51,502 nucleotides of DNA from an uncultured bacterium (GCA_965371515.1 CBDUYR010000020.1:1-51502); one strand, 5' to 3'. Shown: positions 17,990 through 35,700, counted from the stretch's first letter. Notes: generated by a model not told the origin, from the sequence alone. Translations and numbers: made by a program.

Positions 17990-18367
17990 ATGGCGAAGAG
18001 ACTTGAAGTCTACAAGTGCGACATGTGCGGGAACATCGTCGAGGTGCTCCACGGCGGAGCGGGCAAGCTCGTCTGCTGCGGCCAGGAGATGAATTTATTC
18101 GAGGAGAAGACCGCCGATTCCTCGACCGAGAAGCATGTGCCCGTCATCGAGAAGATAGACGGCGGATACAAGGTCGTCGTGGGCAGCACGCTCCACCCGA
18201 TGGAGGAGAAGCATTACATCGAGTGGATCCAGCTGATATCGGGAGACACATCGATAAGGGCTTTCCTCAATCCCGGCGACGCGCCGGAGGCCGTCTTCAA
18301 GTGCGATTTCGACGATGTCTCGGCCCGTGAGTTCTGCAACGTGCACGGGCTGTGGAAGGAGGAATAG
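17990..18367 (+). CDS. dfx: Desulfoferrodoxin (2Fe superoxide reductase)
   Basis: [34 protein letters not shown]. Confidence 0.96.
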
Positions 18368-18373
18368 AGAGAG

Positions 18374-18904
18374 ATGATCCCCGACAAGATCAACAAGGCT
18401 TTCAATGAGCAGATCAAGCATGAGTTCTACTCTGCATATCTCTATCTCTCGATGGCTTCGTGGCTGGAGACCGAGGGTCACGAGGGGATGGGCCGGTGGA
18501 TGCGCGTGCAGGCGATGGAAGAGATGACGCACGCAATGAAGTTTTTCGACCATATCCTCGAAAGAGGAGGCGAGCCCGAACTGCTAGCCATCGATAAGCC
18601 GACCGTGAAATGGGACTCGCCTCTCGCGGCGTTCGAGAACGCCCTCGCGCACGAGGAGTTCATCAGCGGGAAGATAAACGACCTGATGACCCTCTCGCTC
18701 GACGAGAACGACCATGCCTCCAGGACGATGCTCCAGTGGTTCGTCGACGAGCAGGTCGAGGAAGAGGACAATGCCTCGAAGAACGTCTACAACTTGAAGA
18801 TGGTCGGAGACAGGGGGCAGGGAATGCTCATGGTCGACCGGGAGATGGGCGCAAGGGTATTCAAGATCCCTCTCTCTCCCGAGTTCGGCAACTCGGCGGA
18901 GTAG
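18374..18904 (+). CDS. ftnA: Non-heme ferritin
   Basis: NEQIKHEFYSAYLYLSM, EEMTHAMK, HE, LQWFVDEQVEEE. Confidence 0.95.
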   Translation: MIPDKINKAFNEQIKHEFYSAYLYLSMASWLETEGHEGMGRWMRVQAMEEMTHAMKFFDHILERGGEPELLAIDKPTVKWDSPLAAFENALAHEEFISGKINDLMTLSLDENDHASRTMLQWFVDEQVEEEDNASKNVYNLKMVGDRGQGMLMVDREMGARVFKIPLSPEFGNSAE

Positions 18905-18949
18905 GGCCCCGACCTGAGAACCGTATTCAGATGAGGAAGGAACCCGACG

Positions 18950-20176
18950 ATGAAGGCATGCAGGGCTGTGAAGATCTCGGATAACGTCTACTGGGTAGGC
19001 GCGGTCGACTGGGATATCAGGAACTTCCACGGATATTCGACCGACCGTGGAACGACGTACAACGCCTACCTGATTATGGCCGAGAAGGTCACTCTCGTGG
19101 ATACCGTCAAGGCGCCTTTCCGCGAGGAGCTGCTTGCCAGGATCAGGTCGGTCATCGAGCCGGAGAAAATCGACTACATCATCTCCAATCACTCCGAGAT
19201 GGATCACACGGGCTGCCTGCCGGCGATGATCGATATCATCAAGCCCGAGGAAGTCTTTGCCTCGAAGAAGGGCGTCGAGGCGCTCGAGGCGCATTTCGGG
19301 CTGAAGGAAATCACTGCCGTCGATGACGGGGGCGAGATCGACCTCGGGAACATGAAGGTCACCTGCCTCGAGACAAGGCTCCTGCACTGGCCCGATTCGA
19401 TGGTCTCGTACCTGGCGGAAGACAAGGTTCTCTTCTCGCAGGACGGCTTCGGGATGCATCTCGCCTCGAACGAGAGGTTCGACGACGAGCTGGACGATTA
19501 CGTGCTCTACCACGAGGCGGCGAAGTACTTCGCCAACATACTTCTGCTCTATTCGCACATCGCCGGGAAGGTAATAAAGAGGATAGAGGAGAGCGGGCTC
19601 GAGATAGAGACGATCGCTCCCGACCACGGGCCGGTATGGCGCGCGAAGATCCCATGGATAATCGACCTGTACAAGAAGTGGTCGGCCAGGGAGCTGAAGA
19701 AGAAAGCGATCATCGTATACGATTCGATGTGGGACAGCACGCGCATGATGGCAAGGGCGATAGAGGACGGGCTGACCGAGGGCGGTGTGCACGTCAAGGT
19801 TCTCAATGCCACCGCGACCGGCCGTGCGGAGATCGTCACCGAGCTGTTAGACGCCGGCGCATTGATCGTCGGGTCGCCGACGCTGAACAACCAGATCTTT
19901 CCGACGATCGCCGACGTCCTCACATACATCAAGGGGCTCAAGCCTATGGGGCTCGTCGGCGCGTCGTTCGGTTCGTACGGATGGAGCGGCGAGTCGGTCC
20001 GTGTGCTGAACGCCTGGCTCGAGGAGATGAAGGTCGAGCTGGTGGGGGAGGGGGTCAGGGTCAACTATGTCCCGAAGACCGGTGACTTGGAGAGGTGCAG
20101 GCAGCTCGGTCTCGATGTGGCGAAGAGGATCAAGGATCTGCCCGATCCGCTGATAGTCACGAAGGTCTGCACCTGA
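18950..20176 (+). CDS. fprA: Flavodiiron protein (class A; O2/NO reductase)
   Basis: GTTYNAYL, NHSEMDH, LHWPD, SQDGFG, APDHG, flavodoxin domain YDSMWDST / GSYGWSG. Confidence 0.95.
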   Translation: MKACRAVKISDNVYWVGAVDWDIRNFHGYSTDRGTTYNAYLIMAEKVTLVDTVKAPFREELLARIRSVIEPEKIDYIISNHSEMDHTGCLPAMIDIIKPEEVFASKKGVEALEAHFGLKEITAVDDGGEIDLGNMKVTCLETRLLHWPDSMVSYLAEDKVLFSQDGFGMHLASNERFDDELDDYVLYHEAAKYFANILLLYSHIAGKVIKRIEESGLEIETIAPDHGPVWRAKIPWIIDLYKKWSARELKKKAIIVYDSMWDSTRMMARAIEDGLTEGGVHVKVLNATATGRAEIVTELLDAGALIVGSPTLNNQIFPTIADVLTYIKGLKPMGLVGASFGSYGWSGESVRVLNAWLEEMKVELVGEGVRVNYVPKTGDLERCRQLGLDVAKRIKDLPDPLIVTKVCT

Positions 20177-20227
20177 GCCGAAGGGTCCGGCAGCCCATTC
20201 CGGCACAGCAGCCATTAACGGTTTTAA

Positions 20228-20254
20228 CGGCCCCGGTTTATGCAACCGGGGCCG
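20228..20254. terminator. Hairpin after fprA, possible terminator
   Basis: CGGCCCCGGTT-TATGC-AACCGGGGCCG; no strong U tract. Confidence 0.5.
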
Positions 20255-20300
20255 CTCTGGTCAAAATTCCTGAAAAACCTCGATTTTCGGCCATTTGCAG

Positions 20301-20344
20301 TTGACAATACACTGCCCTCTCATTATATTGGTATATAAGTACCA
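20301..20344 (+). promoter_or_regulatory. sigma70 promoter with adjacent inverted repeat (likely Rrf2 operator)
   Basis: TTGACA-17 nt-TATATT (20301-20329); TGGTA-N6-TACCA (20329-20344). Confidence 0.65.
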
Positions 20345-20367
20345 CAATACTCATATAAGGAGATATC

Positions 20368-20817
20368 TTGCATGGTTCGCTGAGAATATCCGAAGCCGCG
20401 TCGCTGGCGCTGCACACCATGGTTTTCCTGGCGGGTGCCCCGGACATCCGGTATTCGGCCGGCAGGATAGCCCGGACGCTCTGTGTCTCGGAAGCCCATC
20501 TTGCCAAGGTCCTCCAGAGGCTCTCGAAGGCCGGTCTTCTCGTCTCTGCCAGGGGGCCGAAGGGTGGATTCCGGCTTGCCCGAGGCCCGGAGAAGATAAC
20601 CCTGCTGATGGTCTTCGAGGTTATCGACGGGCCGTTCAAGCCTGAAGAATGTCTGATGCAGGACCAGAGCTGCGGTCAGATGGGGTGCCTGTTCGGCGAC
20701 CTGCTCGGAGACATCAACAGGCAGGTGAGGGAGTATCTCGGCGGCCGGAATCTCGAGGACGTCAAATGGGTCTACGATTCGGCAGGAGACAGGAAAGGAA
20801 ATCAAGATGAAGCGTAA
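20368..20817 (+). CDS. Rrf2-family transcriptional regulator with three C-terminal Cys
   Basis: SEAASLALH, HLAKVLQRL, SARGPKGGFRLA, CLMQDQSCGQMGC; AAGGAG RBS and TTG start. Confidence 0.92.
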   Translation: MHGSLRISEAASLALHTMVFLAGAPDIRYSAGRIARTLCVSEAHLAKVLQRLSKAGLLVSARGPKGGFRLARGPEKITLLMVFEVIDGPFKPEECLMQDQSCGQMGCLFGDLLGDINRQVREYLGGRNLEDVKWVYDSAGDRKGNQDEA

Positions 20818-21763
20818 GATAATCACCATCGATGATGAGAAGTGCAACGGATGTGGAGCCTGCATCCCCGACTGCCCCGAGGGGGCGCTCCAGCTTATTG
20901 ACGGCAAGGCGAGACTTATCAGCGATCTCTTCTGCGATGGGCTGGGCGCATGCATCGGAAGCTGTCCCGAGGATGCCATCTCGGTAGAGGAGAGGGAGGC
21001 GGAGCCGTACGACGAGTCGAAGGTCATGGCAAATATCGCCCGGCACGGGACCAATACGATCAAGGCTCACCTCGCTCACCTGCAGGACCACGGCGAGGAC
21101 GAATTCCTGCGCGAGGCCATCGCGTACCTCGTGGAGAACGACATCGAGGTCCCCTCCGAATTCCTCGAAGCGAAATGCGCCTGCGGAGAGCTCGGCGACG
21201 CGCCGTCAGGCAAGGAAGCAATCGAGCGTCTCGTCGAGGAGGAGAAGAAGTGCAGAGAGCCTGTCATCGACAGGGGGCCGGACCCACACGGACAGGGTCA
21301 ACATCTCGGTGGCGGGTGCCCCGGCACGAGACTGATGAACTTCGATATGGACGCCCCTCCCTGTGAAGAGGAAGAAGCCGCGGCTCCGGAATCGATGCCT
21401 TCGAGGCTGAGGCAGTGGCCGGTCCAGATAATGCTGATTCCACCGCATGCGCCGTTCCTCAACGGAGCCGACCTGCTCTTCGCGGCCGACTGCGTACCGT
21501 TTGCCTACCCCGATTTTCACGAGAAGTTCCTGAAGGGCCGTGTATGTCTCGTCGGGTGCCCCAAGCTCGACGACGCACAGCACTACCTCGAGAAGATCAC
21601 CGAGATGTTCAAGCTCAACGATATCAAGTCGGTGATGATCGCCTACATGGAGGTTCCCTGTTGCGGGGGAATGATCAGAATAATCGAAGAGGCGATGAAG
21701 GCCTCAGGGAAGAATATCCCGCTGGCGAAGCAGATGATCGGCATTAAGGGCGACGAACTCTAG
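20807..21763 (+). CDS. 2x[4Fe-4S] ferredoxin-domain protein with Cys-rich C-terminal domain
   Basis: CNGCGACIPDCP, CDGLGACIGSCP, GGCPG, QWPVQ, AADC, GCPKLD, MEVPCC. Confidence 0.9.
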   Translation: MKRKIITIDDEKCNGCGACIPDCPEGALQLIDGKARLISDLFCDGLGACIGSCPEDAISVEEREAEPYDESKVMANIARHGTNTIKAHLAHLQDHGEDEFLREAIAYLVENDIEVPSEFLEAKCACGELGDAPSGKEAIERLVEEEKKCREPVIDRGPDPHGQGQHLGGGCPGTRLMNFDMDAPPCEEEEAAAPESMPSRLRQWPVQIMLIPPHAPFLNGADLLFAADCVPFAYPDFHEKFLKGRVCLVGCPKLDDAQHYLEKITEMFKLNDIKSVMIAYMEVPCCGGMIRIIEEAMKASGKNIPLAKQMIGIKGDEL

Positions 21764-22866
21764 GCGGGCCTGAGATCGTCCAGCCATGTGGCGTCCGCGT
21801 CGAATTTTCTCTTGAAGAACTTTCCGTCGTTCTTCGGATCGCGTGCCTGGTGGAACCTGAAGTAGAAGTAATCTTTATCCATCCCCGCTATCGCGATCTT
21901 GCCGTCCCGATGTGACATGACGTAACGGTATCTCTTGCTGTACCCGTCAAGCAGCGATCTGGATTTCTCGACTATTTCGAACCCTCTTGCGAGGGAGATC
22001 TGGAACAGTTTCTTTACGCGTTTTACGGGCCGGCACTGGAATACGTAATACGGAACTGCTCCCATTCCGGTAAGTTCCCTCTGCAATTTCGACAAGGTCT
22101 CGGGGTTGTCGTTTACACCCCGGAGAAGCACTGTCTGGTTGTTGGTCACTATGCCCGCGCGGTGAAGTCTGTTTATCGATTTTCGCGCCTCAGGAGTGAT
22201 CTCACTGGGATGATTGAATTGTGTGCTGACATATAGACGTTTTTTCTTGACCGAGATCTCCTTGAGGAGTTCGTAGAGTTCCCTGTCCTCTGTGATGCGC
22301 TGCGGCATGGTAACCGGTACCTTCGTGCCGATACGGATGAAATCGAGATGATCGATGGCGGAGAGCTTCTCCAGAAATTTTCTCAGTATCCTGGTGGGCA
22401 GGCAGAGAGGATCTCCTCCGCTGAGAAGGACGTTGTTGATCTCGGGATGAGCGCTGATATAGCTGACCGCGTCGCCCAGCCGGTGAATGGTCTCTCCCGT
22501 CGGGCGCCCGACGAGTCTTTTCCTGAAACAGTATCTGCAGTAGGTTGTGCACATATTGGTGGTCAGCAGGAGCGCGGTCCGCGTGTATTTGTGCTGCAGC
22601 CCGGTGAGTTTTGTGCTCTGCTGCTCGCCGCTCTGGTCGTATATTCCTGAAATGTCGAGCTCGCCATCCGAGGGTATCGTCATTTTCCTCAGTGGATCAT
22701 CCGGGTCGTTCCAGTCGATCAGCGATGCGTAATACCTCGTGATACTCATCGGATGACGGCCGATGATCTTCTTGAGCTTTATCTTCTCGGTCTTTGATAT
22801 ATCGACGAACTCGGCCAGGTCCTCGACGGTCGTGATATTATTCTTGAATTCATTTTCCCAGTTCAC
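21760..22866 (-). CDS. KamA-family radical SAM/PLP aminomutase-like protein
   Basis: GLQHKY, CTTYCRYCFRKR, LLSGGDPL, QFNHP.E, NQTVLLRGVND, GK (putative PLP Lys); GGAGGT RBS supports GTG at 22866. Confidence 0.9.
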   Translation of the reverse strand: MNWENEFKNNITTVEDLAEFVDISKTEKIKLKKIIGRHPMSITRYYASLIDWNDPDDPLRKMTIPSDGELDISGIYDQSGEQQSTKLTGLQHKYTRTALLLTTNMCTTYCRYCFRKRLVGRPTGETIHRLGDAVSYISAHPEINNVLLSGGDPLCLPTRILRKFLEKLSAIDHLDFIRIGTKVPVTMPQRITEDRELYELLKEISVKKKRLYVSTQFNHPSEITPEARKSINRLHRAGIVTNNQTVLLRGVNDNPETLSKLQRELTGMGAVPYYVFQCRPVKRVKKLFQISLARGFEIVEKSRSLLDGYSKRYRYVMSHRDGKIAIAGMDKDYFYFRFHQARDPKNDGKFFKRKFDADATWLDDLRPA

Positions 22867-23084
22867 GTTGTCCACCTCCCACATGGAGACACGTATGGCT
22901 AGATTACGTTCCGACTGGCCTTGCAGTGTTAATAAGGTAAAATTACCGAGGCAAACCAGCATGTATGAAACTGCTCTGGAGGTCCCGTGCAGGTTCAGAT
23001 ACAAGATAACATATACGGAATGTGATTGCTATCGTTAAAGGTGATGCTTGTATAACGCTATTTGCGGCGATCTTAGCGGCCTTA

Positions 23085-23122
23085 TAAGAAAGGAGCCATG
23101 TCCCGAAAGGGACACGGCTCCT
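23085..23122 (-). terminator. Intrinsic terminator closing the 27187-23148 operon
   Basis: Minus strand AGGAGCCGTGTCCC-TTTC-GGGACATGGCTCCT followed by TTCTTAT. Confidence 0.8.
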
Positions 23123-23147
23123 CCGGCCCGGATCTTAGCAGGAGTTA

Positions 23148-23801
23148 CTAATTCGACGTTTCCGTCTTCACGTGGATCCTCGAGTCCTTCGAAATCGAGA
23201 GTCCTGCGGAATCCGCATCGAGCAGTCCGTTTTCGTCGGTAATCACAACGATGCCGTCTACAACCACTGCGACGTTATCTGTTCTGATTTCCCTCTCACC
23301 GACAAGGAAATACGAGGGCCTTCCCGTGGCGATATCGGGGAATTCCCTCAGGACATAATTACCGTCACCCGAGCAGAATCTGAGGGGCTCTCTCTCAGGC
23401 TGTTCGGTAGCCGCTGCCAGCGACGGCTCCTCTTCGAAAGGATGTGTGTACGGTTCGTAAACCAGCTCGATCCCCTCCGCTACGGACCCCGATACTTCAG
23501 AAGGACTTAATGAGATATTCCGCATGAGGACATCGAATCTTACATCGATTTTTGCAGTTTCAACGACCTGGCGATAGTAGCTGACGAATTCAATCAGCTC
23601 CTCTAGCGTTTCCCTGCACATCTCGCATGCCTCCAAGTGGGATCTCAGGTCCCCTTCTCCGGGTTGAAAAAGATCCGCCACAATTGCCGCCGAATCTTTC
23701 TCATGAGCGCCTTCCGCTCCGGCCCCTCCAAGTGCTCTAATGGCGAGTGCTTCCAGCTTTCCCCTAGGTATACACCCCTCCGGCGTCGCATTTTTAAACA
23801 C
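23148..23801 (-). CDS. Soluble zinc-binding anti-sigma-like protein (zf-HC2/ZAS motif) with C-terminal beta domain
   Basis: CIPRGKLEAL...HLEACEMCRE (Hx3Cx2C); no TM segment; GTG start abuts the upstream stop, GAGGAGG-like RBS. Confidence 0.65.
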   Translation of the reverse strand: MFKNATPEGCIPRGKLEALAIRALGGAGAEGAHEKDSAAIVADLFQPGEGDLRSHLEACEMCRETLEELIEFVSYYRQVVETAKIDVRFDVLMRNISLSPSEVSGSVAEGIELVYEPYTHPFEEEPSLAAATEQPEREPLRFCSGDGNYVLREFPDIATGRPSYFLVGEREIRTDNVAVVVDGIVVITDENGLLDADSAGLSISKDSRIHVKTETSN

Positions 23802-24914
23802 TCATCTCACCTCTTCTCTGGAGACATCTCGGATATCTGCACGAATTTTTTTCAGAAAATTTTCCCAGAGAGCCTTCCAGAAGTTCTGAAAGCTGCCCAT
23901 ATGCCTCTTCCTGTACATTTCGGTATCGCATTCCTCTATATGCCGGCCCAGGGCCTCATTGTGCGGGATCTTCCTGCCGTGGACGATTATTTCAATGAGG
24001 ATGTCTCTTCCGGCCTGTACGTACGCTTCCCGGAATTCGGCCGAGCCGCCCTTCCTCCAGCCGTACGATTCAGCCGTCTCGGTCAGCGCCTCTTCGGAAA
24101 GACGAAACATCTCCTTCTGCAGGTACTCCTGCATCGGGTCGTTTCTCGTGATCTCGCTGCGGGGCTGTATGAACCGCGATTTGATCAGCTCATACGCGGC
24201 GGTCCGCAGTGTGGAGATATGAAGGCGGCTGGCATATCTGTTCCCTGCCGAGAGATTATCGAAGATCAGCTCAACGGCCCTGCCCGGGGTCTCCGAGCCC
24301 TGCAGAAGCGGGGCGATGGCGGTGACGATCTCATCGGCGGTCGCCTGCCTGTGCGAGGCCGATTCCGCCGCCTCGAGATCGATCACACTACTGCCCCTGC
24401 GTTCGAATCTCGGGCTGGTCCTGATGTGCCGGGTGACGGCCGAGAAGATATAATGCAGCACCTTCTTTTCGGATCGGGAGATCTTCTTCAGAATCTGGCT
24501 GAGATTGACCTCGGTTATCCCCTTCAAAAAGAAGAAGAGATCCTTCTTCTCCGTCTTGTCGTTACCGGAGAAGAACCGCAGGATGAGATTCGTGATCTCG
24601 AGGAAGTTGTTTTCTCCCCGCGTCGAGTATGGGGTCTCTGCCGTGATATGGGCGATCTCCTCGAATTCGTACGACACCGTGCTGAGAAAGAACCATGCTG
24701 AGGACCTGGACTTCACCTCGAGCTCGGCGACGGCCATCGCGAAAAGATGGAGGTAGATAATCCGGATATCCCCACGTGCGGATTTCTCGGCCTGGTCGAT
24801 CATCTCATCGGAGGGGGAGATGCCGGCAAGCGGCTCGAACATGTCGCGGATGTTTTCTGCCGACTCGTAGAGGCGGTCCAGATCGACACCTTCGAGGGTC
24901 ATCGGCTCGTTCAC
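23802..24914 (-). CDS. Hypothetical helical protein, possibly a highly divergent sigma70/ECF-like factor
   Basis: 370-aa ORF coupled to both neighbours (GTGA overlap); weak region-2-like segments EEIAHITAE and FFFLKGITEVNLSQILKK; sits directly before a ZAS gene. The CDS is solid; the function is inferred. Confidence 0.5.
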   Translation of the reverse strand: MNEPMTLEGVDLDRLYESAENIRDMFEPLAGISPSDEMIDQAEKSARGDIRIIYLHLFAMAVAELEVKSRSSAWFFLSTVSYEFEEIAHITAETPYSTRGENNFLEITNLILRFFSGNDKTEKKDLFFFLKGITEVNLSQILKKISRSEKKVLHYIFSAVTRHIRTSPRFERRGSSVIDLEAAESASHRQATADEIVTAIAPLLQGSETPGRAVELIFDNLSAGNRYASRLHISTLRTAAYELIKSRFIQPRSEITRNDPMQEYLQKEMFRLSEEALTETAESYGWRKGGSAEFREAYVQAGRDILIEIIVHGRKIPHNEALGRHIEECDTEMYRKRHMGSFQNFWKALWENFLKKIRADIRDVSREEVR

Positions 24915-27187
24915 TTGCCCTTCCTCGCCAGGGTATCGTTATGATCTTTCAAATGTCTCAGGTACGACCTGTTGACCGTCGGCTCGGCGACCCATTCTTC
25001 CCCGTCCCAGTAGCGGACGCCTTCAGCCAGGGCTGCTTCGTCCTTTTTCTGTCCGGCATAGAACACTTCCTCGATTTCGTCCGGCATTTTCTTGTGAATA
25101 GTTACAGTCTGGACGATTCTGGCTCCTGTGCATTCCAGGCGGTTTCCAAACGTGAATTCAACATCTGCCCCTTTTGAATTAACGACGAGCGATATCCCAC
25201 CGGGATTGTGCCGGATTCTGGGTGAAAACGGATAATGGTGTTTTCTATAAGGAATGTACCTGTAGAAGTCCGGAAGTTTAATATAGTACTTTGCCACATC
25301 GGCATTGATCCCACTGACATCATAATTATATCCCTTTGGGGATGATCCGCTTGCGAATGCCGGATCGATGATGATGGCTACACAGGCTTCCAGCTCGATA
25401 TTGTATCCGGCGATAAACAGGTCGATATTACCGTCATTGTCGAAGTCGCCTTTTTTTATCTCCTGCAGGGCACCCTTGTGGTAAAACCCCTGTATTCTTC
25501 CATCATCCGGGTAGTAACTGATGAGCGCGGCCGGCAGATTCAGAGAATGATTTGTAAGGATCAGTATTCTGGGCTCTTCGTCCTGATTCGCCGAGAACAT
25601 CTCGGAGTTAACCATCATGATCCCCGTGTTGTACCCGGCAATATCTAAAGATTTGCCAAAAACATCTGCCTCATTGTATGTGGAACTGCGGATGAGGGAC
25701 CCTCTGTCGTCGAATGAATAGAAGTGGAGTCGATTAACTCTGTAAGGATGGGCGCGTCGGGATTCGGAAAGGACGCATATTGCTTCCCTGCCCTCTGATC
25801 CATCAAAGTCCGCGACAAAAAACCTTTTAAATATTGTTGTTTTTCCTGTCATGAATCCCACATTGAGAGATGATATGTTGTGACTATACTGGTTTTGTAT
25901 GACGAGGAGGCTGTCGACCAGTTCTATTTTAGCGATGGAACGGTTGACATAAGGGGGCAGAATGAAGAAAAACAATGATGCCAGAATTGCGGCAGTCGCG
26001 GAAAGACTGGTTATAAGGTGTTTTCTCCCGAGGAACATTCGCTGAAGCAGGGGTTTGCCGGCGGGGGCTTTGCGCCTGGCCGTAATTCTGGGATCACTGT
26101 ATATAGCGGCTATATCTGATGTTGGTACGAGGTCGAGTTTCCTCTCCGGATACTTCCTCGAAAGGACAGCGAGCTCCTTTTCCGCCGTATCGAGATTGCC
26201 GGCCGGGAGGATGAGCTTTGAAAACCTGGAGAAGAAGACGGCCCGCACCTTGTCGGCTACATAGGAGTCTTCTACCGCCAGGATATTCCCGGTCTCGTCG
26301 ACCGTGCCTGTGAATGCGATAGCGGGATTTATCCTGAGCCTGTATCTGTGGAGGTCGAGCCTGCCGAGCACCGATACGAGCAGCGCCGCGATAGCAAGGC
26401 CTGCCGAGCCTCCGGACAGTCTCTGGATCGCCGATGCGGGAAAGGATGCGATCTCAGGCAGGGATATCCTGTATTCCCTCGGTATCCTCTGGATACCTCC
26501 CATGCCCATCGCGGAAGCTGCGTATTCTTCCGCGACCCTGACGGCGGTGTGGATCTGTCTCTCGAAAGGGCTGTTCGGTTCGGCGGATATATGTTCGAAG
26601 TTGATGACGGGGTGGTGCCTCGTTCTGACGCTCCACTCGCCGGTGATCCTGATCTCCACGCGTGCCTTGACCACACGGCCCGTACTGAAAGGGGTCTTTC
26701 CCGTGTTGTATATCGAGACGAGGGGGAGTCCTGCCGTGCCCCAGGCGTTTTCCCTGAAGAATCCTCCAGCTCCGGTCTCGCTTTTCCGGGAGGCGTCTGC
26801 CGAAGTCTCTGCTGCCGTGCTGTCGCCGTTAAGGATTGCCGAGATCGAATCGATCTCCCCGCGGATTCTGGACAGACCCTCTTCGACGCCGGCGGGGATG
26901 TAATCTCCCGTCGCCATTGCAATGTCTCCCGCGACATCGTTGAGTGACTCGAGGCCCTCGTATCCGAAAGAAACGTATGCCTCGGAGATCAGGGCGTCCA
27001 TTATGATGGGGGTGAAGAGGGCGAGCTGGGGCGCGTAGAACGACTGATTGGTATTCTTGAGATGGGCCAGCAGTATGGCCGCCGGCTCAACGAGCGAAAG
27101 ACCTTCTTTTTTCCCCTTGAGCTTCACGTAGAGGTGCTGAAGAAGGTCGTCGATTTCCCTGATGGACAGGTCGAAGTCGTTCGTCAA
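24911..27187 (-). CDS. Membrane-anchored Lon-type (S16) protease-domain protein with extracytoplasmic FG-GAP-like domain
   Basis: LSGGSAGLA (Ser261), IAFTGTVDETGNILAV, DKVRA (Lys313), LILPAGN; one TM (LITSLSATAAILASLFFFILPPYV); VADFDGSEGRE and GDFDNDGNIDL motifs; no AAA+ Walker motifs. Confidence 0.78.
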   Translation of the reverse strand: MTNDFDLSIREIDDLLQHLYVKLKGKKEGLSLVEPAAILLAHLKNTNQSFYAPQLALFTPIIMDALISEAYVSFGYEGLESLNDVAGDIAMATGDYIPAGVEEGLSRIRGEIDSISAILNGDSTAAETSADASRKSETGAGGFFRENAWGTAGLPLVSIYNTGKTPFSTGRVVKARVEIRITGEWSVRTRHHPVINFEHISAEPNSPFERQIHTAVRVAEEYAASAMGMGGIQRIPREYRISLPEIASFPASAIQRLSGGSAGLAIAALLVSVLGRLDLHRYRLRINPAIAFTGTVDETGNILAVEDSYVADKVRAVFFSRFSKLILPAGNLDTAEKELAVLSRKYPERKLDLVPTSDIAAIYSDPRITARRKAPAGKPLLQRMFLGRKHLITSLSATAAILASLFFFILPPYVNRSIAKIELVDSLLVIQNQYSHNISSLNVGFMTGKTTIFKRFFVADFDGSEGREAICVLSESRRAHPYRVNRLHFYSFDDRGSLIRSSTYNEADVFGKSLDIAGYNTGIMMVNSEMFSANQDEEPRILILTNHSLNLPAALISYYPDDGRIQGFYHKGALQEIKKGDFDNDGNIDLFIAGYNIELEACVAIIIDPAFASGSSPKGYNYDVSGINADVAKYYIKLPDFYRYIPYRKHHYPFSPRIRHNPGGISLVVNSKGADVEFTFGNRLECTGARIVQTVTIHKKMPDEIEEVFYAGQKKDEAALAEGVRYWDGEEWVAEPTVNRSYLRHLKDHNDTLARKGK

Positions 27188-27256
27188 TTGCGTTCCGCCT
27201 GGTTGAGCATCCCGCAGTGTCCCCTCCCCAGCGGTCCGTTATAGAGGCGCAGCCTC

Positions 27257-27286
27257 ATTCTATACCAAGAATAGGGGCTGAATCAA
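27257..27286 (-). promoter_or_regulatory. Putative sigma70 promoter of the Lon-like operon
   Basis: TTGATT (27286-27281)-18 nt-TAGAAT (27262-27257). Confidence 0.5.
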
Positions 27287-27358: not shown

Positions 27359-28702
27359 TCAGTCTCCCTCGACGGTCTCAGCCCGGAGATCGCCGTAGAT
27401 GACTCTCCAGCGGCCGTCCTCGATCTTCCAGCGCATCAGTACCTTGTCGTGGTCGAGGGCGCCTACCGAATCTCCGTGATATTCCACCTCGACGCCGTCT
27501 TCCACGAGTCCGGCATGGAAGGCGCTGAAATTGCGCGTCTTGAAGATCTCCTTGAAGAGTTCCGACCCCCAGAGCCCCTCCTTCTGAAGCCTGTCCTGGT
27601 TCTTACGGATCTCGCTCGCAGCCATACCGAGAGCGGGGTCGGCCGGGTATCTTCCGTTCGTAAGCTTCGAGTAGGCACGCAATCCCTCAATAGCGCCTTC
27701 TTCACCTTCATGAGCATCCCCGAAATCGAGAGTGATGTAATCCTCCGGAACCTCGAATTCGAAATCCTCCTTCGACAGTGACGGATTCCACTGGAAATCT
27801 CTGTATGTCTCGTGGACTACCACCTTGCCCTCGTCCGATTTGAATTCCCTCTCGATCAGCACTGGCCAGTTAGTCGATGCGTCTACCCATAGGCGGACCG
27901 AGCCCTCCTCGTACTGGCCGGCCCACATCACCGGGTCGATGACCTCGATGCCCGAGGCTTTGATACCGGCTATATCGCGAGTGCCGATCTCCCTGTACTC
28001 GAAGGAGTGGAAATACTCGACCATGTCCCGGGCGCTGGTCATGTCAGTCATCTTCCTGGCGTCCCTGCTGGTAAGGCCGATTGTGAAATAGGACTCGTTC
28101 TTGTGGTGGAGCACATGGATCGCCTGCTCATCCTGCCTCACGAAGATCTCGACTGCGAGTTTACCGTCGATGTACTGGGCCTTCTTCTGACCGTACTTTT
28201 CCGAGAACCAGGCGATCATCTCCATGCTGTCCATGGGGGTGGCCACCCGGTCTATGCGGCAGATGTAGTCCTGTGCCTCCCGCACCTGGGCGATGACCTG
28301 TGCCCATGCGACGTCCCCCGGCCCCCCTCTGAATATCAGGTTCCAGCCGACGATAAGCACGAGCGCGGCTGCGGCGGCAAGCGCGAGTTTTGCAGCCAAC
28401 CCGCCTGAGAATCCACGCTTTCGGCCGGTCTTTTCCATATCGATGACATTATCAGTGGTCTCGTCCTTGTACTGTTTTTCGATCGATTCCATGACTCTTT
28501 CCTCCAGCCGTTCGATTTTCCCGTTCATGGATCGAGTCATTCCGGTCAGCAGCCTGTCGTCCTCGAGAAGGGCGTTGCGGTACTCCCTGCACCCGGCGCA
28601 TTCGGCGAGATGTTTCTCTATTCGGGCGATCTCGTCGCCGCTAAGCCCCGAATGAAGCATCTCCTCGAGCTTCTCTCTCGTCTCGGTGCAGCGATCACTC
28701 AT
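27359..28702 (-). CDS. Transmembrane anti-sigma factor (zf-HC2 + TM + LolA-like extracytoplasmic domain)
   Basis: MSDRC...HLAECAGC; TM LALAAAAALVLIVGWNLIF; LWVDASTNWPVLIE and DFQWNPSLSKEDF; ATG overlaps the sigma stop (ATGA). Confidence 0.85.
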   Translation of the reverse strand: MSDRCTETREKLEEMLHSGLSGDEIARIEKHLAECAGCREYRNALLEDDRLLTGMTRSMNGKIERLEERVMESIEKQYKDETTDNVIDMEKTGRKRGFSGGLAAKLALAAAAALVLIVGWNLIFRGGPGDVAWAQVIAQVREAQDYICRIDRVATPMDSMEMIAWFSEKYGQKKAQYIDGKLAVEIFVRQDEQAIHVLHHKNESYFTIGLTSRDARKMTDMTSARDMVEYFHSFEYREIGTRDIAGIKASGIEVIDPVMWAGQYEEGSVRLWVDASTNWPVLIEREFKSDEGKVVVHETYRDFQWNPSLSKEDFEFEVPEDYITLDFGDAHEGEEGAIEGLRAYSKLTNGRYPADPALGMAASEIRKNQDRLQKEGLWGSELFKEIFKTRNFSAFHAGLVEDGVEVEYHGDSVGALDHDKVLMRWKIEDGRWRVIYGDLRAETVEGD

Positions 28703-29223
28703 CTCAAACCTGCCTGTCTCTCCAGGATCCTGCGCAGTTCCTTCCGCGCCCTGCTCAGCCTCGTACACGCTCCGGCATGGCTGATCTCGAGCTCCACTGC
28801 GAGCCTCTTCGCGCTCTTTCCGTCGAAGTAGTAGAGCATGAGCGGCGTGCGGTATTTCTCGGGCAGCATGGCCAGCGCCTCGTGCAGCCGGGAAAAGTCC
28901 CCGGTTTCCGGCTGCGGGTCGTGCATGCGTTCCTCGATGAGCTCCCGCCGCCTCGCGCCGACGCGGATATGGTCCCGGCAGAGGTTTCTCGCGATATGCG
29001 TGATCCACGGCCCGAACGACTCGCCGCTGCGGAGGGTACCGAGGCGGGAGAATCCCCTGATAAACGCCTCCTGGGCGATATCGTCGCTGTCTGCTGTGTT
29101 CCCGAGAATGCCCATACACACGGCGTAGACCCTCCTCGAATGCCTCCGGACCAGGTCTGCGTATGCCTGCCTGTTCCCGTTGCGGCTGGTTGTGACCAGA
29201 TACTCGTCCGTTATCTCGTTCAC
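28699..29223 (-). CDS. ECF RNA polymerase sigma factor
   Basis: DSDDIAQEAFIR, FGPWITHIARNLCRD, LPEKYRTPLMLYY, TRLSRARKEL; GTG 29223 with GGGAG RBS (alternative ATG 29241). Confidence 0.93.
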   Translation of the reverse strand: MNEITDEYLVTTSRNGNRQAYADLVRRHSRRVYAVCMGILGNTADSDDIAQEAFIRGFSRLGTLRSGESFGPWITHIARNLCRDHIRVGARRRELIEERMHDPQPETGDFSRLHEALAMLPEKYRTPLMLYYFDGKSAKRLAVELEISHAGACTRLSRARKELRRILERQAGLR

Positions 29224-29247
29224 GGGAGCTCCCTTTCTCATACACAG

Positions 29248-29362: not shown

Positions 29363-29491
29363 AACAAAATAAGCGGCCAATACAGCTGATTCTCAAAAAA
29401 TCTAAATCGGAAGATGCTGTCCTGGGCTGTGATCATGCGTCAATTTTTAATTACACCATGATGCAGTCCTGAAGTGGATGGACTTCGTGCC

Positions 29492-32400
29492 ATGATTTCC
29501 GATGCCTCGCGCGTTTCTCGCCCGACCCTTCTATTCCTTGCCTCGATCCATATCCTTGCGATCGTTTTTGTCTCTCCTCTGTATGCCCAGGATCCGGTCT
29601 GGGACTTTATTATCGCCGCCGATTCGATCAGCAAGGCCGGCGACGATGCTGCGCTTACCCGGTTCGTGGGAGAAAACTCCATCCTCGTCGGCGCTGCCGT
29701 GCACGAGCTCATCGATTCTGCGGTGATCGTCGGGGACCAGGGGAGTGCCGCGGACGAGAAGGACAACATGGAGTTCGCGGAGCTGATCGCCCGCATCTAC
29801 CTGGACGGGGGAGGCGATCCGGCTCCTCTCGAGCTCGTGGCCGTCTACAGGGCGTGGACTCCTGATCAGCGAAAGGCGAGAGCATCGGCGAAATCTCTCG
29901 AGGAACAATCGGCGGAAGCCCGCAGAACCCGCGACTTCGAGACTGCGTCCGGCCTGCTCGGGCAGGCTCTCGATATCTACAGGGAGATCGGCGACAGTTA
30001 TTCCGAGGCGATCGTCTACGGAAGTTATGGCGTGCTCTATTGGCATGCGGACGATTTCGACTCGGTTTTCGAATATTACGGAAAAGCTCTGGCCGCCCGC
30101 CGCGGGATAGACAATGCAATCCTCGAGGGAAAGACACTCAACGGGCTCGGTTCTGCGCACAATGTTTATGACAGGTTCGATTCGGCGGCCTTCTATTACG
30201 GCATGGCTATAGACCTGCGGCGCAGGACGGGCGACCTCTCAGGCCTTCTCTCCTCCGTGACATATCTGGGCAACACGTATCTCAGACAGGGCAGGCTCAA
30301 CGACGCGAGAAACGTCTATGAAGAGGCTGCGGGCATCCTCGAGAGGACCGGTGGTAAAGTATCCCAGCAGATAGACCTGCTCAACTCTATGGCCAGTCTC
30401 TACTTCGATATGGGGCGCCTGGGAAGGTCGAACGAGGCGTACCGTGCGGCGCTCGAGAAGGCAGTTTCCCTCTATGGGACCGATCCCGAGCTCGCCGCTC
30501 AGGCGGAGATCTCGATTCGCATGAACATAGCCACCAATCTGATGAAAGAGACAAGGTACAGAGAGGCGATGCGGGAGCTCGACGCAGTCCGCCTCCTGCT
30601 CGAACGATATCCCGATCCGGTCACATCGGCCGCATTCGCGCGGAATCTCGGACAGGCCTACTACGAGATGGGCGAACTCGACCATGCCCGCGATAATTGG
30701 CTGCTCTATCTTCGAATGGCGACCGAGCTGGAAGCTCCCGGCATGGAGATAGAGGCGCTTATAAACATCGGGAACCTGTACATGACGTACGGAGCGCCGG
30801 ACAGGGCGCTCGCCTTTGCCGATTCCGCACTGGTCAAGGCGGAGAGGGCCGGGAACCTGACCTTCCTGCGAAGCGCCCACATGCTTTCCGCCGAGCTGCG
30901 GACGGAGACGGGGGATTACGACATCGCCCTGTCACACTGGGAGAAGGCCAGGGAGATAGACGGAGACCAGCAGGCAGAGGGAAGCATGATCTTCGACGAG
31001 ATGGGGATCGCCAATGTCTATGCCCTCAAAGGGGAGAGCGAGAGGGCCAGGAAGAAATACCTCGAATTGCTTCCCCGTATCCGCAGCTCCGGGCTGAGCT
31101 CGATGGAGGAGCCGCTCTGGTTCGGCATTGCGCACACATATGAGAAAGACAGTCCTGACAGTGCCAGATTCTACTACGATAAGGCCTTTTCGCTGCTGGA
31201 GGCGGCTGGATTCCAGACGAGCAGCGCGGAACTGGGGACGGGATTTCATGGAAACGGCAGATACTACTACGAAGAGGTAGCGAGGTTCTACGCCGGCATG
31301 GCCGCCCGGACGGGGGACGACATGTGGTCGTGCGAGGCGTTCAAGACGATCGAGCGATCGAAGGCGCGGGGGCTCCTCGAGATGCTGCAGAGCTCGATCG
31401 CCGGAGAGCATTCGCCCGCCGAGGAAGCCCTGCTCGATTCGATATACAGCCTCGATAAGCAGGCGGCCGGTTACAGAGGAGACCTGGAGAAACTAGAGCG
31501 CTGCTACAGGGTGCTCAAGGAGGAGAGGCTCGGTTCGGCGACCGGGAAACTGGTGGTGGGAGGGGAAGTGTCGGGGCTTGAGGATGTCCGCAAGGCCCTG
31601 CCGCGAAAGACCGTCGTTTTCTCGTACGCCCTCGGAGACAGCGCCTCGCAGCTGTGGGTGATCGACCGGAATGGGCACGAGCTTTACGAACTGCCCGGAC
31701 GCCAGGAGCTCATGAAGGACTCGGAGCTGCTGGTACAAGCGGTGAAAAGACCCGGCGCGGGTGACGACGCGTTCATCACCAGGTCGCGGAGGCTCTACGA
31801 TATATTGATCGCGCCCGGCGTCGGGAAGCTCGGCAAGGCGTCGGATCTGGTCATAGTGCCTGACGGGTGCCTGTTCGGGATACCGTTCGAGGCCCTGCTC
31901 GCCGGGGACGCAGAGACCGGGGCCGACTGGAAGGATATGCCATTTCTCTTCAGATCGTACAATACGGTCTACTCGCCCTCCGCCTCCTGCTTCCTGTGGC
32001 TCCGAAACAAGAAATACGCGAAAAAATACGAAGTCGATCTCCTGGCCGTCGGCGATCCCGATTATTCGGGCGTCGATACCGGCTCGGGCCGCCCTCTCCG
32101 CCCGCTTCCCAACACGAGAGCCGAGGTGGAAGGTATCGGCCGCATGTTCGACGAGTCCGAGAAGACCATACTCGTCGGGCCGGCGGCGACCGAGGGGACG
32201 CTGAAGAAGAACATAAGCGAGCATCCGTCACGGATAATCCATATAGCCGCCCACGGGCTCGTCGACCCGGTGACTCCGGCAGCCTCGAGCATAGCTCTCT
32301 GCGCGGAGCCCGGTTCCGGTGAGGACGGCTATCTCCATACGCTGGAGATCCTGGCCCTGCCGGTGGACTCACGTCTCGTCGTCCTCTCCGCGTGCGAGAC

Positions 32401-32680
32401 GGCGACGGGAAGGATAGGCAGGGGCGAAGGCGTCGTCGGGTTGAGCAGGGCGTTTCTCTGCTCAGGGGCCTCGGCGGTGGTTTCAAGCCTGTGGGCAGTT
32501 TCCGACGAATCGACTGCTCTGCTCATGGAAATATTCTACGAAAATATGACGGGAAAGGAAAAATCAGCGGTTCGGGCCATGAGGGAGGCCCGGGGGAAGC
32601 TTCTCGAAACCGCCGAGTACTCGCATCCTTTCCATTGGGCGTCTTTTATAACTATAGGGACGGACAAGGCGCCCTGGTAA
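29492..32680 (+). CDS. TPR-CHAT (caspase-like) protease with N-terminal signal-like segment
   Basis: Hydrophobic N-terminus LLFLASIHILAIVFVSPLYA; many TPRs; ERSKARGLL, IVPDG.L..IPFEAL, HIAAHG (His), LVVLSACET (Cys), VSSLW.VSD, HPFHWASF. Confidence 0.93.
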   Translation: MISDASRVSRPTLLFLASIHILAIVFVSPLYAQDPVWDFIIAADSISKAGDDAALTRFVGENSILVGAAVHELIDSAVIVGDQGSAADEKDNMEFAELIARIYLDGGGDPAPLELVAVYRAWTPDQRKARASAKSLEEQSAEARRTRDFETASGLLGQALDIYREIGDSYSEAIVYGSYGVLYWHADDFDSVFEYYGKALAARRGIDNAILEGKTLNGLGSAHNVYDRFDSAAFYYGMAIDLRRRTGDLSGLLSSVTYLGNTYLRQGRLNDARNVYEEAAGILERTGGKVSQQIDLLNSMASLYFDMGRLGRSNEAYRAALEKAVSLYGTDPELAAQAEISIRMNIATNLMKETRYREAMRELDAVRLLLERYPDPVTSAAFARNLGQAYYEMGELDHARDNWLLYLRMATELEAPGMEIEALINIGNLYMTYGAPDRALAFADSALVKAERAGNLTFLRSAHMLSAELRTETGDYDIALSHWEKAREIDGDQQAEGSMIFDEMGIANVYALKGESERARKKYLELLPRIRSSGLSSMEEPLWFGIAHTYEKDSPDSARFYYDKAFSLLEAAGFQTSSAELGTGFHGNGRYYYEEVARFYAGMAARTGDDMWSCEAFKTIERSKARGLLEMLQSSIAGEHSPAEEALLDSIYSLDKQAAGYRGDLEKLERCYRVLKEERLGSATGKLVVGGEVSGLEDVRKALPRKTVVFSYALGDSASQLWVIDRNGHELYELPGRQELMKDSELLVQAVKRPGAGDDAFITRSRRLYDILIAPGVGKLGKASDLVIVPDGCLFGIPFEALLAGDAETGADWKDMPFLFRSYNTVYSPSASCFLWLRNKKYAKKYEVDLLAVGDPDYSGVDTGSGRPLRPLPNTRAEVEGIGRMFDESEKTILVGPAATEGTLKKNISEHPSRIIHIAAHGLVDPVTPAASSIALCAEPGSGEDGYLHTLEILALPVDSRLVVLSACETATGRIGRGEGVVGLSRAFLCSGASAVVSSLWAVSDESTALLMEIFYENMTGKEKSAVRAMREARGKLLETAEYSHPFHWASFITIGTDKAPW

Positions 32681-32744
32681 ATGGCCGCGGCCCGCGATGT
32701 TTGCGGAGCCGCACAAACATCATGTCTCAGAGGGGGACCCCGAG

Positions 32745-35700
32745 ATGAAAACTGCTCTGGTTTTCTGCTGCATCGTCGTCTTGATCTCGATTATTTTTTC
32801 ACCCGTACCAGCCGGAGCGGACGAGCCGTCAGGCATGATCCCGGTCACGGGTGACGGCAGGGAGATTCTGCGCATCACTTCGGAGGGAGGATCGGGCCCC
32901 CGCCTGATCGCCTATTTCGATCCCGGCCTGACGCAGCGCACGATCTGCGTGACCTCGGGCGATACGATCGTGGTCTTCCTGGCGGCAGAGAACTGTCCTG
33001 CCCCGATCGACAGGCTGATATACGGGCTCACCTGTTCCAGCCCTCCTCTGGTGTTCGTCGACGAGACGTTCGAGGCGGGGACAGCGACGGGTGATTTCTA
33101 TTCTGGCATCGACCTCGGTTTCGGCGTCCCGGCCGAAGCTTCAGGTCAGCTCCTGATCCAGACGCTCAGGTTCGCGGTGACCGGATCGTGCCTGGACGGG
33201 TGCGGCCTTGACCGGCCCGACGGCATCGTCACTACCTTCCATCCCGTACTGGGTTCCGGGGGAGAGCCGAGCGCCATCCTGACCACTGGTGAGGAGATCG
33301 TCGTGTACGGCCATTCCTCGATGGTCTGCGATGATGACGGACTTCCCGATCTCGAGATCGCCTCGTTCACCTCGCCCGATACTGCGATGACGTATGAGGA
33401 TATATTTCCAGGTCTCGACCTGGTGATCCGAAACGGCGGCGAAGATGACACGAATGAAGGCTTTGAAATACAACTATTCCTCGTCGACGATATGACGACG
33501 ACCTATGGGGAGATACTGAGCAAGCGTTCGATATCCACGGTCATTCCGGCCGGAGGTACCGCGTCTTTCGAGCTGGAGGACGCGACGATTCCTCTCACAT
33601 CGGAATTCGGACAGAAATATCTTCTTCTCGTGCTCGATGGATACGATGGAGTGATCGAGGGAGACGAGGGAAACAACTCGCTCTATCATCCTATAGTGAT
33701 TGTTCCCAATCTCGATATTGATTCGGTCTGTGTCTACGCTGAAGACTTCCAGGAAGGAGCCGGCGGATGGACTCCCGTTGATCTCACAGCGGGCGAACCC
33801 CACTGGAAGACCGACATGCATTTCGACGGAGCGACCGACAGGGACGTGATGTGGTGTGGAACGGACGACGCTTCCTATTCGACTCAGCCCGGTTACGGAA
33901 ACAACTGGAACGAGGGACTCGTCAAGCAGTTCTCGCTGCCGACGGGCGATGTGACGCTGAGCTGTCTGCTCCAGCACGACGTTGAGCAGGGCTACGATTT
34001 TGTCCGCGTCCAGATCTCGACGGACGGGGAGAACTATTCCGACCTGGCCGCGCTGAGCGGCAGATCAGGCGGTTTCGTCCAGAAGGACTACGATCTGACC
34101 CCTTACAGCGGCACGGATGTCTCGATCAGATTCCTCGTCGCTTCGGACAACGCCTGGTCGGATGAGGACGGAGGGTATCCAAGCAAAGGCGCCCTGATGA
34201 TCGACCGGGTCGCGATCACCGGCCTGCCCCCCGATGAATTTATCTCGGGATTCGACGGATGGACCGCCGATCTGTGTCCCCCGGTCGGAGGGGAGTACCG
34301 TCTCGAGTACGATCCTCCATGCGATATTGCGTTTCCCTGCGGGATCAACCAGTCGGGCGAACCCCAGGTCACATGCAACGCCTGGGTAGCATACGATCCG
34401 GCCACCGGAGTCTTCCCTTTCTCGTCCGACGAGGAGAGGGCTGCGGGCCTCGGCGTCAATATCGGGATCGTCTCTCCGGAGATCCCGGTTCCCTTCGACG
34501 CCGTCGCCGTAATCATGGAATTCGACGTATATCTCGTCCTCCCGCTCGTGAACAACCAGTATTTCACCTGGGATGTAGCATTCCCTCCCGACTGGGAATG
34601 GCAGAGCAAGAATCACAAGAACCATCTTTACTACGGTACGGGCGGCTGGACCACGGTGAGCTTCGACATCACGCGTTACATCCCGCCCGGTGCTGAGCAG
34701 ATGAAGATCAGGCTTCGAAGCCTCGAGAGTTTCGAGCTTCCGTTCAACGGCACACACACACCGGCCCCGTACTTCGACAATGTCATTGTTTACGGCGTCG
34801 GTACATCCGCGGGCGGGATAAATGTGGCGTCCTTTCCCAGGGACTGTTCCCTGGCCGACAGCGACTGGGACGGCGTAGGCGATGTCGTCGATGCCTGCCC
34901 ATTCGAGAATTCCGCTCCGTTCGACCGTGACGGCGATGGCTGTATCGACGAGACGATCAGCAGCAGGCATGTCGAATACGTAGCGGATGATACCCTGCGG
35001 TTCTGGATCCACGAGGACGGCGCGCCCGCCGTGCACGACGGCAGTGACATCGAGGCGATCCGGCTCGGCGTGGAGGCGTGGAACGCAGTCTCCGGCATCG
35101 ACATCGGGGCGAGGTACATGGGGACGACGGAGCAGAGGGACGCGCGCATACTCGACGGGATGAACACGATCACCTTCAGCGACCCTGATTACGTCTTCCC
35201 TATCGGCGTGCTCGCCGTCGGGATAAGCACATCCTTCGTCGAGCCGCAGCGCTATCGTGAGCAGCCGGTCAGGCCCGGCCAGATTGTCGACGCCGATATC
35301 ATCTTCAATCCGATGATGAGTTTCACCACGCCTTCAAACACGCATATCGAAGGCACGGATATCAAGAGTGTCGCCACACACGAGGCCGGACACCTCTTCG
35401 GCCTGTCTCACTCGGCCGTGCAGACCTCCACGATGTTCTTCGTGCTGCCTCCCGGGACGGAAGCCTCGACCCTGGAGGTCGAGGACCAGCTGGCGCTGAG
35501 GAAGGCGTATGCCGAACAGACTGTTCTCGACGGGGCGAGCAGGCTGAAGGGAACGGTAACCGACGGGCAGAGCGGACTGCCCGTGCCGGGCGCCATAATC
35601 TTCGCCATCGATTCGGCGAGCAGCGACACACTAGGCAGCGAATACACGATGATCGATGGGAGTTTCGATTTCTTCGACCTCCCCGACGGCGATTATTACG

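Follow-up and report, generated by a model that had tools for sequence, protein, structure and literature searches.

The 51,502-nucleotide stretch of DNA analysed here (GCA_965371515.1, CBDUYR010000020.1:1-51502; hereafter the window) comes from the genome of an uncultured bacterium (3.08 Mb, 99.6% complete), in which it is contig C20. On its minus strand lies an operon of three genes, and the named homologues of the encoded proteins belong to Candidatus Krumholzibacteria. Gene 1 encodes a predicted membrane protein with a Lon-type protease domain, gene 2 a mostly helical protein that may be a divergent sigma factor, and gene 3 a soluble protein with a zinc anti-sigma (ZAS) motif. A preliminary description, made from the sequence alone, had reported three open reading frames (ORFs) joined by a GTGA overlap and then by an abutting stop and start, and this arrangement is present as described (Table 1). 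We consider it probable that the operon specifies a receptor-triggered cascade that resembles the CRISPR-linked protease, anti-sigma and sigma system CalpL-CalpT-CalpS, operates free of CRISPR, and is finished by ClpXP.

Table 1 Features of the operon, with positions counted from the first letter of the window.
Feature	Position	Strand	Remarks
Gene 1	24911..27187	minus	758 amino acids, TTG start, ORF 27187-24911; predicted parts: N-terminal helical region (about 1-140), Lon/S16-type protease domain, one transmembrane (TM) helix, extracytoplasmic FG-GAP-like module
Ser261, predicted nucleophile (GGSAG)	26405..26407	minus	in 27/29 aligned homologues and 10/10 Lon-like neighbours in the second phylum
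Lys313, predicted general base	26249..26251	minus	in 27/29 aligned homologues and 10/10 Lon-like neighbours in the second phylum
TM helix, residues 391-411	25955..26017	minus	N-in/C-out; sole strong hydrophobic segment
Extracytoplasmic sensor-like module, residues 412-755	24914..25954	minus	FG-GAP-like
Gene 2	23802..24914	minus	370 amino acids, GTG start; GTGA overlap with gene 1
Gene 3	23148..23801	minus	217 amino acids, GTG start abutting the gene 2 stop
L128-A129-A130-A131, predicted cleavage site	23409..23420	minus	invariant AA, CalpT precedent, covariation with the Lon gene
Bipartite motif	23815..23843	minus	here CGTGCA-N16-CCAGAGA; family consensus TGCA-N16-CCATATA
Shine-Dalgarno sequence of gene 3	23807..23813	minus	GAGGTGA; from sequence, kept in relatives
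Sigma-70-like promoter candidate of the operon	27257..27286	minus	TTGATT, 18 nt, TAGAAT; both boxes kept in relatives
Conserved 5' leader of gene 1	27188..27236	minus	CCGC...GGCGG arms around a GGAGGGG tract
Intrinsic-terminator-like hairpin after gene 3	23086..23124	minus	folds; kept in relatives

Judged by its sequence, the product of gene 1 crosses the membrane once and carries a Lon (S16)-type domain that has no ATPase and is predicted to be proteolytically active. The Pfam model Lon_C scores the protein below threshold (E 0.02; score 14.9 against a cut-off of 21.1). When the gene 1 family profile is compared with the PDB, Lon proteases, recognised by name or entry title, account for 26 of the 30 sequences listed at E up to 10, with a best E of 6e-5; the best matches are the TTC1975 LonC and archaeal LonB domains. 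In these profile matches GGS261AG and K313 align on the Lon motifs, and the Ser-Lys dyad of the G-x-S-A-G and TG...K motifs is present in gene 1. The two aligned homologues that lack Ser261 have lost Lys313 too; they are near-identical sequences, one of them being the first of two tandem copies in genome G055. The Pfam scan finds no AAA family in gene 1, and no Walker A motif occurs in ten homologues from a second phylum, described below. The segment N-terminal to the TM helix is the richer in Lys and Arg in 29 of 29 homologues, which places the protease domain inside the cell. The Lon proteolytic domain with its Ser261/Lys313 pair, the lack of an AAA+ module and the single TM helix are thereby as the preliminary description had them. 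In the tandem arrangement of G055 (L023:3444-8016), the first copy is without both catalytic residues and the second is intact; the first copy could be a decoy or a co-receptor.

The part of gene 1 that follows the TM helix forms the outer, sensor-like module. Its earlier assignment to an extracytoplasmic FG-GAP-like domain is favoured by the C-out topology and by homologues whose FG-GAP match reaches E 3e-8, but the match is weak in the query itself (E 0.19). In 11 of 27 database matches the module is doubled, such homologues being about 1090 amino acids long. Among 208 genomes of the phylum, 54 contain matches to gene 1, of which 16 are full-length and 38 cover the outer region only; each of the 12 outer-region-only proteins that were scanned carries an N-terminal Cro/C1 helix-turn-helix (HTH) ahead of its TM helix. 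Since the outer module occurs both on HTH regulators and on a Lon-type protein, it is used with different cytoplasmic outputs, as would be expected of a sensor. Homologues P0048, P0050, P0052 and P0054, compared with P0001, are closely related and have the protease half in common, but their outer module is sharply different, which suggests that sensor modules are swapped among close gene 1 homologues. The XRE-HTH/TM/FG-GAP-like one-component regulators (L090-L103) are present in 38 of the 208 genomes, often in several copies. We take their layout to be ToxR/CadC-like.

Gene 3 is, on sequence grounds, a soluble, anti-sigma-like ZAS protein, predicted to bind and inhibit a sigma factor. The Hx3Cx2C motif and the lack of a TM segment noted at the outset are confirmed: the protein has C10 and H55-x3-C59-x2-C62, no TM segment is present, and the best PDB match of its profile is the anti-sigma factor RsiW (E 0.0014). 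Across 34 aligned rows, H55 is conserved in 33, C59 and C62 in 32, and C10 in 28. The first ligand, C10, stands 45 residues upstream of the others, a spacing that is usually shorter in ZAS proteins. In the ESM Atlas, gene 3 reaches a score of 0.94 to clusters, one set of which has zf-HC2 in 35% of its members. The profile comparison with the PDB lists no CalpT at E 10, a point against the proposed cascade.

The zinc motif of gene 3 is followed by a linker containing LAAA and by a C-terminal β-rich region. Within the linker, A129-A130 are the most conserved residues of the protein, present in 34 of 34 rows and in 10 of 10 rows under 60% identity, and the residue preceding them is L, W, M or F. 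Cleavage on the C-terminal side of A130 would create an ssrA-like C-terminus, ...EEEPSLAA. A study of the CRISPR-linked system reports that CalpL cuts CalpT within 202-LAAA, between A204 and A205, that the cut exposes an LAA C-degron required for sigma release, and that CalpL cleaves in trans within a filament (10.1101/2024.05.08.593097). ClpX is encoded in the genome studied here.

The three genes are found together elsewhere. Among the 208 genomes of the phylum, gene 2 occurs in 15, gene 3 in 17 (two of them weak or cut) and full-length gene 1 in 16, and these are nearly the same set. In the 16 loci that were fetched, all three genes are adjacent and in the same order in 13, and two loci are cut by contig ends; the position of the operon beside housekeeping redox genes is stable in the genus. 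Some of these loci speak against the proposed reading. Gene 1 lies on another contig in genome G044 (1/16). A frameshift or degeneration affects the ZAS half of gene 3 in three loci (G055, G054 and G044), and one locus, the second copy of G051, has a frameshifted gene 2.

A profile search of 1.84 billion representatives yields 38 matches, the most distant of which is labelled Calditrichota. In the phylum of that most distant match, a second phylum and that of G209, the gene 2 profile matches 126 of 167 genomes (124 of 165 when two unpublished genomes, used for this tally alone, are set aside). From this phylum 40 regions were chosen, comprising 20 among the stronger matches and 20 that are mostly weaker matches or second copies. 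In 30 of them the gene 2 homologue has an ORF with a ZAS motif behind it, and in ten a Lon-like TM gene follows the ZAS gene, resulting in the order sigma-like, ZAS, protease; Ser and Lys are kept in every one of these Lon-like genes. LAA is present at the aligned site in all ten ZAS partners beside a Lon-like TM gene, and likewise in both ZAS partners whose contigs end after the ZAS gene. It is absent from all 13 full-length ZAS partners whose fetched flank contains no Lon-like gene; one of these partners has FAA nearby in an alignment-free count. Five short ZAS proteins and ten regions without a detected ZAS ORF were left out of these counts. The counts tie the LAA site to the Lon-type protease across the two phyla, although they stem from related genomes and hand-chosen regions and could reflect a single split into two clades. 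In G208 and G209 themselves, the gene-1-like matches are only ordinary Lon proteases, and the single-protein scan of genome contigs gives three loci, one of which is a weak, unrelated-looking match. At loci L135-L177 of the phylum of G209, a gene-2-like protein and a soluble ZAS protein form a near-core pair that comes without a protease and is named by no hidden Markov model (HMM) library.

In the second phylum such pairs more often stand without a Lon neighbour than with one, and the three genomes with a broken ZAS half in gene 3 keep an intact gene 1. Both observations would fit a Lon-type domain that acts on another substrate (itself, gene 2 as a pro-sigma factor, or an unlinked protein) or serves as a scaffold, with LAA as a binding or Clp-adaptor motif. 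We regard this as quite unlikely, as LAA is present with the Lon gene and absent without it, another ATP-independent Lon domain, that of CalpL, cuts at the same motif, and Ser and Lys are conserved and lost together. Cleavage of gene 3 at its LAA site is the reading that we retain.

The preliminary description had called gene 2 sigma-like, a claim that the structural model favours and the sequence comparisons do not. The AlphaFold2 model (pLDDT 82.7, pTM 0.57) is mostly helical and consists of three domains: residues about 7-150, which are sigma-2-like in the model, a middle domain (150-250) and a C-terminal domain (260-365). In a comparison with 48,161 representative chains, sigma or sigma-like chains occupy ranks 1-5 and 7 and 22 of 50 rows, some of them (T4 gp55, AR9 specificity subunit) being chains that we take to be sigma-like and that are not so identified by their entry titles. 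The best sigma-2 match covers residues about 7-150 with Z 7.4 and a root-mean-square deviation (rmsd) of 3.0 over 98. A second structural comparison returns sigma chains in 46 of 50 rows, which are highly redundant, at a Z of at most 7.3. The resemblance of the N-terminal domain to sigma-2 is suggestive only, and from the model we predict gene 2 to be a very divergent sigma factor.

Several results weigh against this identity. A Z of 7.4 falls within the range that the tool calls common for helical bundles (Z < 8), no Foldseek match is obtained at E 0.001 among PDB and viral models, and no sigma match (Sigma70_r2/r4, ECF) rises above noise in Pfam, NCBIfam or the PDB. The best sigma library score among 61 members of the gene 2 family is that of a single member at E 0.031. 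Profile-profile comparison assigns probabilities of 1.9-2.6% against the extracytoplasmic function (ECF) factors of the genome and 0.2% against its group 1-3 factors; the weak match, at about 2%, falls at the linker/region 4.1. The C-terminal domain has its best local matches among globin-like, lambda Q and FocB folds (Z 5-6) and not sigma-4; whole-chain alignments do end on sigma-4, at rmsd 12-16. Searches of the ESM Atlas give low-score leads only (0.83 to a Sigma70_r2 cluster).

The missing sequence and profile matches, the extra middle domain of 100 residues and the folds matched by the C-terminal domain would also suit a gene 2 product that is a DNA-binding regulator, or an RNA-polymerase-binding modulator, with a sigma-2-like bundle. 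The protease and the ZAS protein would then act as proposed, and the DNA motif ahead of gene 3, described next, would be an operator. We hold this to be unlikely: sigma chains lead the structural comparison, and a ZAS partner lies directly downstream of gene 2 in 30 of the 40 regions of the second phylum. A further sigma gene is present at L052 (G000:C41:78-6773), where a 286-amino-acid sigma factor has a long insertion between regions 2 and 4. Its gene is followed by those of a zf-HC2-like TM protein and a secreted protein and is divergent from a 956-amino-acid gene, an arrangement that resembles CHAT-linked sigma modules.

Alignment of the gene 2/gene 3 junctions reveals a bipartite motif, TGCA-N16-CCA(T/G)(A/T)A, about 13 nt ahead of the gene 3 start. 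The motif is not a protein constraint, because the gene 2 frame in which it falls differs between loci and, in L029, the whole motif is located past the stop. When each of five distant loci is left out in turn, the motif ranks 1, 1, 5, 4 and 1 among 6,000-32,000 positions, and in locus L067, which was outside the training, it ranks first of 4,378 positions. Training across clades performs less well (ranks 1 to 219, with 217 and 219 among several weak loci), which counts against the proposed reading, as does the absence of a regulon: genome-wide matches show no excess over patterns with wrong spacers and no enrichment ahead of genes, and exact matches in 43 family genomes do not exceed the reversed control and are not at shared places. 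The Krumholzibacteria motif is absent from L104/L105 and from 23 stand-alone loci of the second phylum. Nine of these 23 have a different motif, CCGTAA-N16-GTAT, just past the stop, a count that is partly circular as this motif was drawn by eye from seven of those loci. An antisense copy of the Krumholzibacteria motif at 22986 (plus strand) scores highly here; it is absent from relatives and was rejected as a chance occurrence.

As no regulon was found, it is by inference that we regard the bipartite motif as a candidate cognate promoter of the gene 2 product, feeding back on the anti-sigma gene. A study of rseA describes such an element, the sigma-dependent promoter P3, inside the sigma gene rpoE and driving the anti-sigma gene (PMC8595263); its counterpart here is a candidate only. 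The missing regulon would also suit an operator bound by a gene 2 product that is not a sigma factor. The motif is, however, non-palindromic with a fixed 16-nt spacer, and another clade has a different 16-nt-spaced motif at the same place, which speaks against that alternative.

Taken as a cascade, the operon would work as follows. An outside ligand would cluster the single-pass receptor, the clustering step being borrowed from CalpL, and the soluble zinc anti-sigma-like protein would be cut at its conserved LAA site by the receptor's cytoplasmic Lon-type domain, independently of ATP. Degradation of the LAA-tailed fragment by ClpXP would then remove the zinc domain, and the predicted divergent sigma factor, once freed, would start transcription; the bipartite motif may act as the feedback promoter for the anti-sigma gene, as rseA P3 does inside rpoE. 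If CalpT is a guide, cleavage alone would likely not free the sigma factor, the LAA end being handed over to ClpXP, and by this handover the cascade would not be independent of host AAA+ proteases. The chain of receptor-protease, anti-sigma and sigma had been put forward in the preliminary description. The dyad, the topology, the ZAS motif, the co-occurrence, the lack of Cas10 (see below) and the tracking of the Lon gene by the CalpT-like LAA site, which that description did not mention, favour it, but the sigma identity of gene 2 is suggestive only. Protease activity, the substrate and the bond cut, sigma function, binding between sigma and anti-sigma, activation by clustering and the feedback promoter are the parts that we infer.

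The signals flanking the genes were assessed as well. The stop of gene 2 has been lost by a TGA-to-CGA change at 23831-23829; in relatives gene 2 is nine codons shorter, and a 27-nt spacer that includes a Shine-Dalgarno sequence separates it from gene 3. The abutment is a by-product of this stop loss in the present lineage, and we therefore rejected the idea that genes 2 and 3 are translationally coupled in some special way. The promoter-like element reported for the operon matches 9 of 12 positions, which alone is at chance level (3 found against 3.0 expected), but both of its boxes are kept in relatives. The reported terminator is absent from the list of the terminator scanner, but it folds (the 80-nt stretch at -38.8 kcal/mol) and is likewise conserved. 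The leader of gene 1 is G/C-rich, precedes the TTG start and has a fold of -18.1 kcal/mol, computed without a shuffle control; it is possibly a translational control hairpin. A tract CTCCTGC-x-AAGATCCGGGC, at 23125-23145 on the minus strand between the gene 3 stop and the terminator hairpin, is kept in most relatives.

Downstream of the operon, at 17990-22890, lies a redox cluster that includes an Rrf2 regulator, a 4Fe-4S protein and a KamA-like radical SAM protein, along with members that are presumably desulfoferrodoxin-like, ferritin-like and flavodiiron-like. The Rrf2, 4Fe-4S and radical SAM genes are conserved neighbours of the operon in close relatives. Directly upstream of gene 1, an ordinary ECF sigma factor and a TM zf-HC2 anti-sigma factor are encoded at 27359-29241 (minus strand). 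This ECF sigma factor (29241-28699) was considered as the partner of gene 3 and rejected, since it has its own TM zf-HC2 anti-sigma factor and adjoins the operon in only 1 of 22 loci. Further upstream, 29474-41273 (plus strand) encodes a signal-peptide-bearing TPR-CHAT protease of 1068 amino acids and then a secreted multi-domain protein of 2858 amino acids, the tail of which we take to be FlgD-like. A CHAT homologue is likewise found upstream of the operon in locus L022.

No Cas10 was detected with TIGR02577 or TIGR02578 in the 99.6% complete genome, the controls being positive, in keeping with the independence from CRISPR proposed for the cascade. The Pfam scan shows no SAVED domain in gene 1; the genome-wide SAVED search ran without a positive control. 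The operon shares with CalpL-CalpT-CalpS a set of three genes and an ATP-independent Lon-type Ser/Lys protease. Like CalpT, gene 3 would be a soluble anti-sigma factor in which an LAAA linker joins an N-terminal part that binds sigma to a C-terminal domain, and which has a predicted LAA degron. The input differs, being an extracytoplasmic FG-GAP-like module behind a TM helix in place of SAVED and cA4, and two defining features of CalpL-CalpT-CalpS, SAVED and the type III CRISPR link, are missing from the operon. Gene 3 has a ZAS motif whereas CalpT is described with a MazF-like fold, gene 2 with its 370 amino acids is not recognisable as ECF, unlike CalpS, and Ser and Lys are 52 residues apart in gene 1 compared to 41 in CalpL (S154/K195).

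Other known systems share single aspects of the operon. According to the summary in the CalpL study, Csx29 (TPR-CHAT)-Csx30-CASP-sigma of type III-E CRISPR follows the same logic of protease, cleaved anti-sigma factor and sigma factor, but Csx29 is a caspase-like protease that is switched by target RNA and has no membrane span. RseA/sigmaE and RsiW/SigW resemble the proposed cascade in that an outside signal sets off proteolysis that ends in an Ala-Ala degron for ClpXP and releases the sigma factor, and RsiW shares the ZAS motif with gene 3. In these systems, however, the anti-sigma factor is the membrane-spanning partner and the substrate of site-1 and site-2 proteases, whereas here the anti-sigma-like protein is soluble and the protease spans the membrane. 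LonB, LonC and other S16 proteases provide the best sequence matches of the protease domain, but in gene 1 no AAA+ or Lon-insertion module was found, and the domain is fused to a TM helix and an outer sensor-like domain. The XRE-HTH/TM/FG-GAP one-component regulators of the same class have a related extracytoplasmic region and a single TM helix, and differ in their output, a DNA-binding HTH in place of a protease.

The closest characterised systems, CalpL/T/S and Csx29/Csx30/CASP-sigma, are antiviral, according to the CalpL study (10.1101/2024.05.08.593097). Together with the patchy spread of the module (15/208 genomes), the duplication and swapping of its sensor and the broken copies, this raises the idea of an anti-phage or envelope-breach defence in which the freed sigma-like protein arrests growth. 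PADLOC, however, gives no match for six proteins, the genome has no Cas10, the place beside housekeeping redox genes is stable in the genus, and the gene-2/ZAS pair is near-core in the second phylum. We consider a defence function very unlikely; it concerns the biological role and is compatible with the proposed chemistry.

The main text of the ECF reclassification paper contains neither Lon nor protease as a whole word (PMC7826278), and in the available part of a survey of type III effectors, CalpL is described from CRISPR loci alone (PMC11229360). The module was not found described in the literature searched, in which coverage of subscription papers and supplements is limited. To our knowledge, the known routes from an outside signal to an alternative sigma factor are the cutting of an anti-sigma factor that is bound to the membrane, a kinase, or partner switching. 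We see an even chance that the operon represents a receptor-protease signalling class that frees a member of an unrecognised three-domain sigma family, near-universal in another phylum, and that it is the non-CRISPR counterpart, and possibly the source, of the CalpL/T/S logic.

With the catalytic residues, the bond, the degron and the candidate promoter named, each step is testable in E. coli, and a swappable outer domain on an orthogonal protease would be useful for engineered receptors. If the proposal is true, a receptor that is itself a cytoplasm-facing, site-specific protease would constitute another route to an alternative sigma factor. Three quarters of the genomes of one phylum (126/167) would possess a sigma-like family overlooked by current HMM libraries, and the Lon, anti-sigma and sigma logic linked to CRISPR would exist outside immunity.

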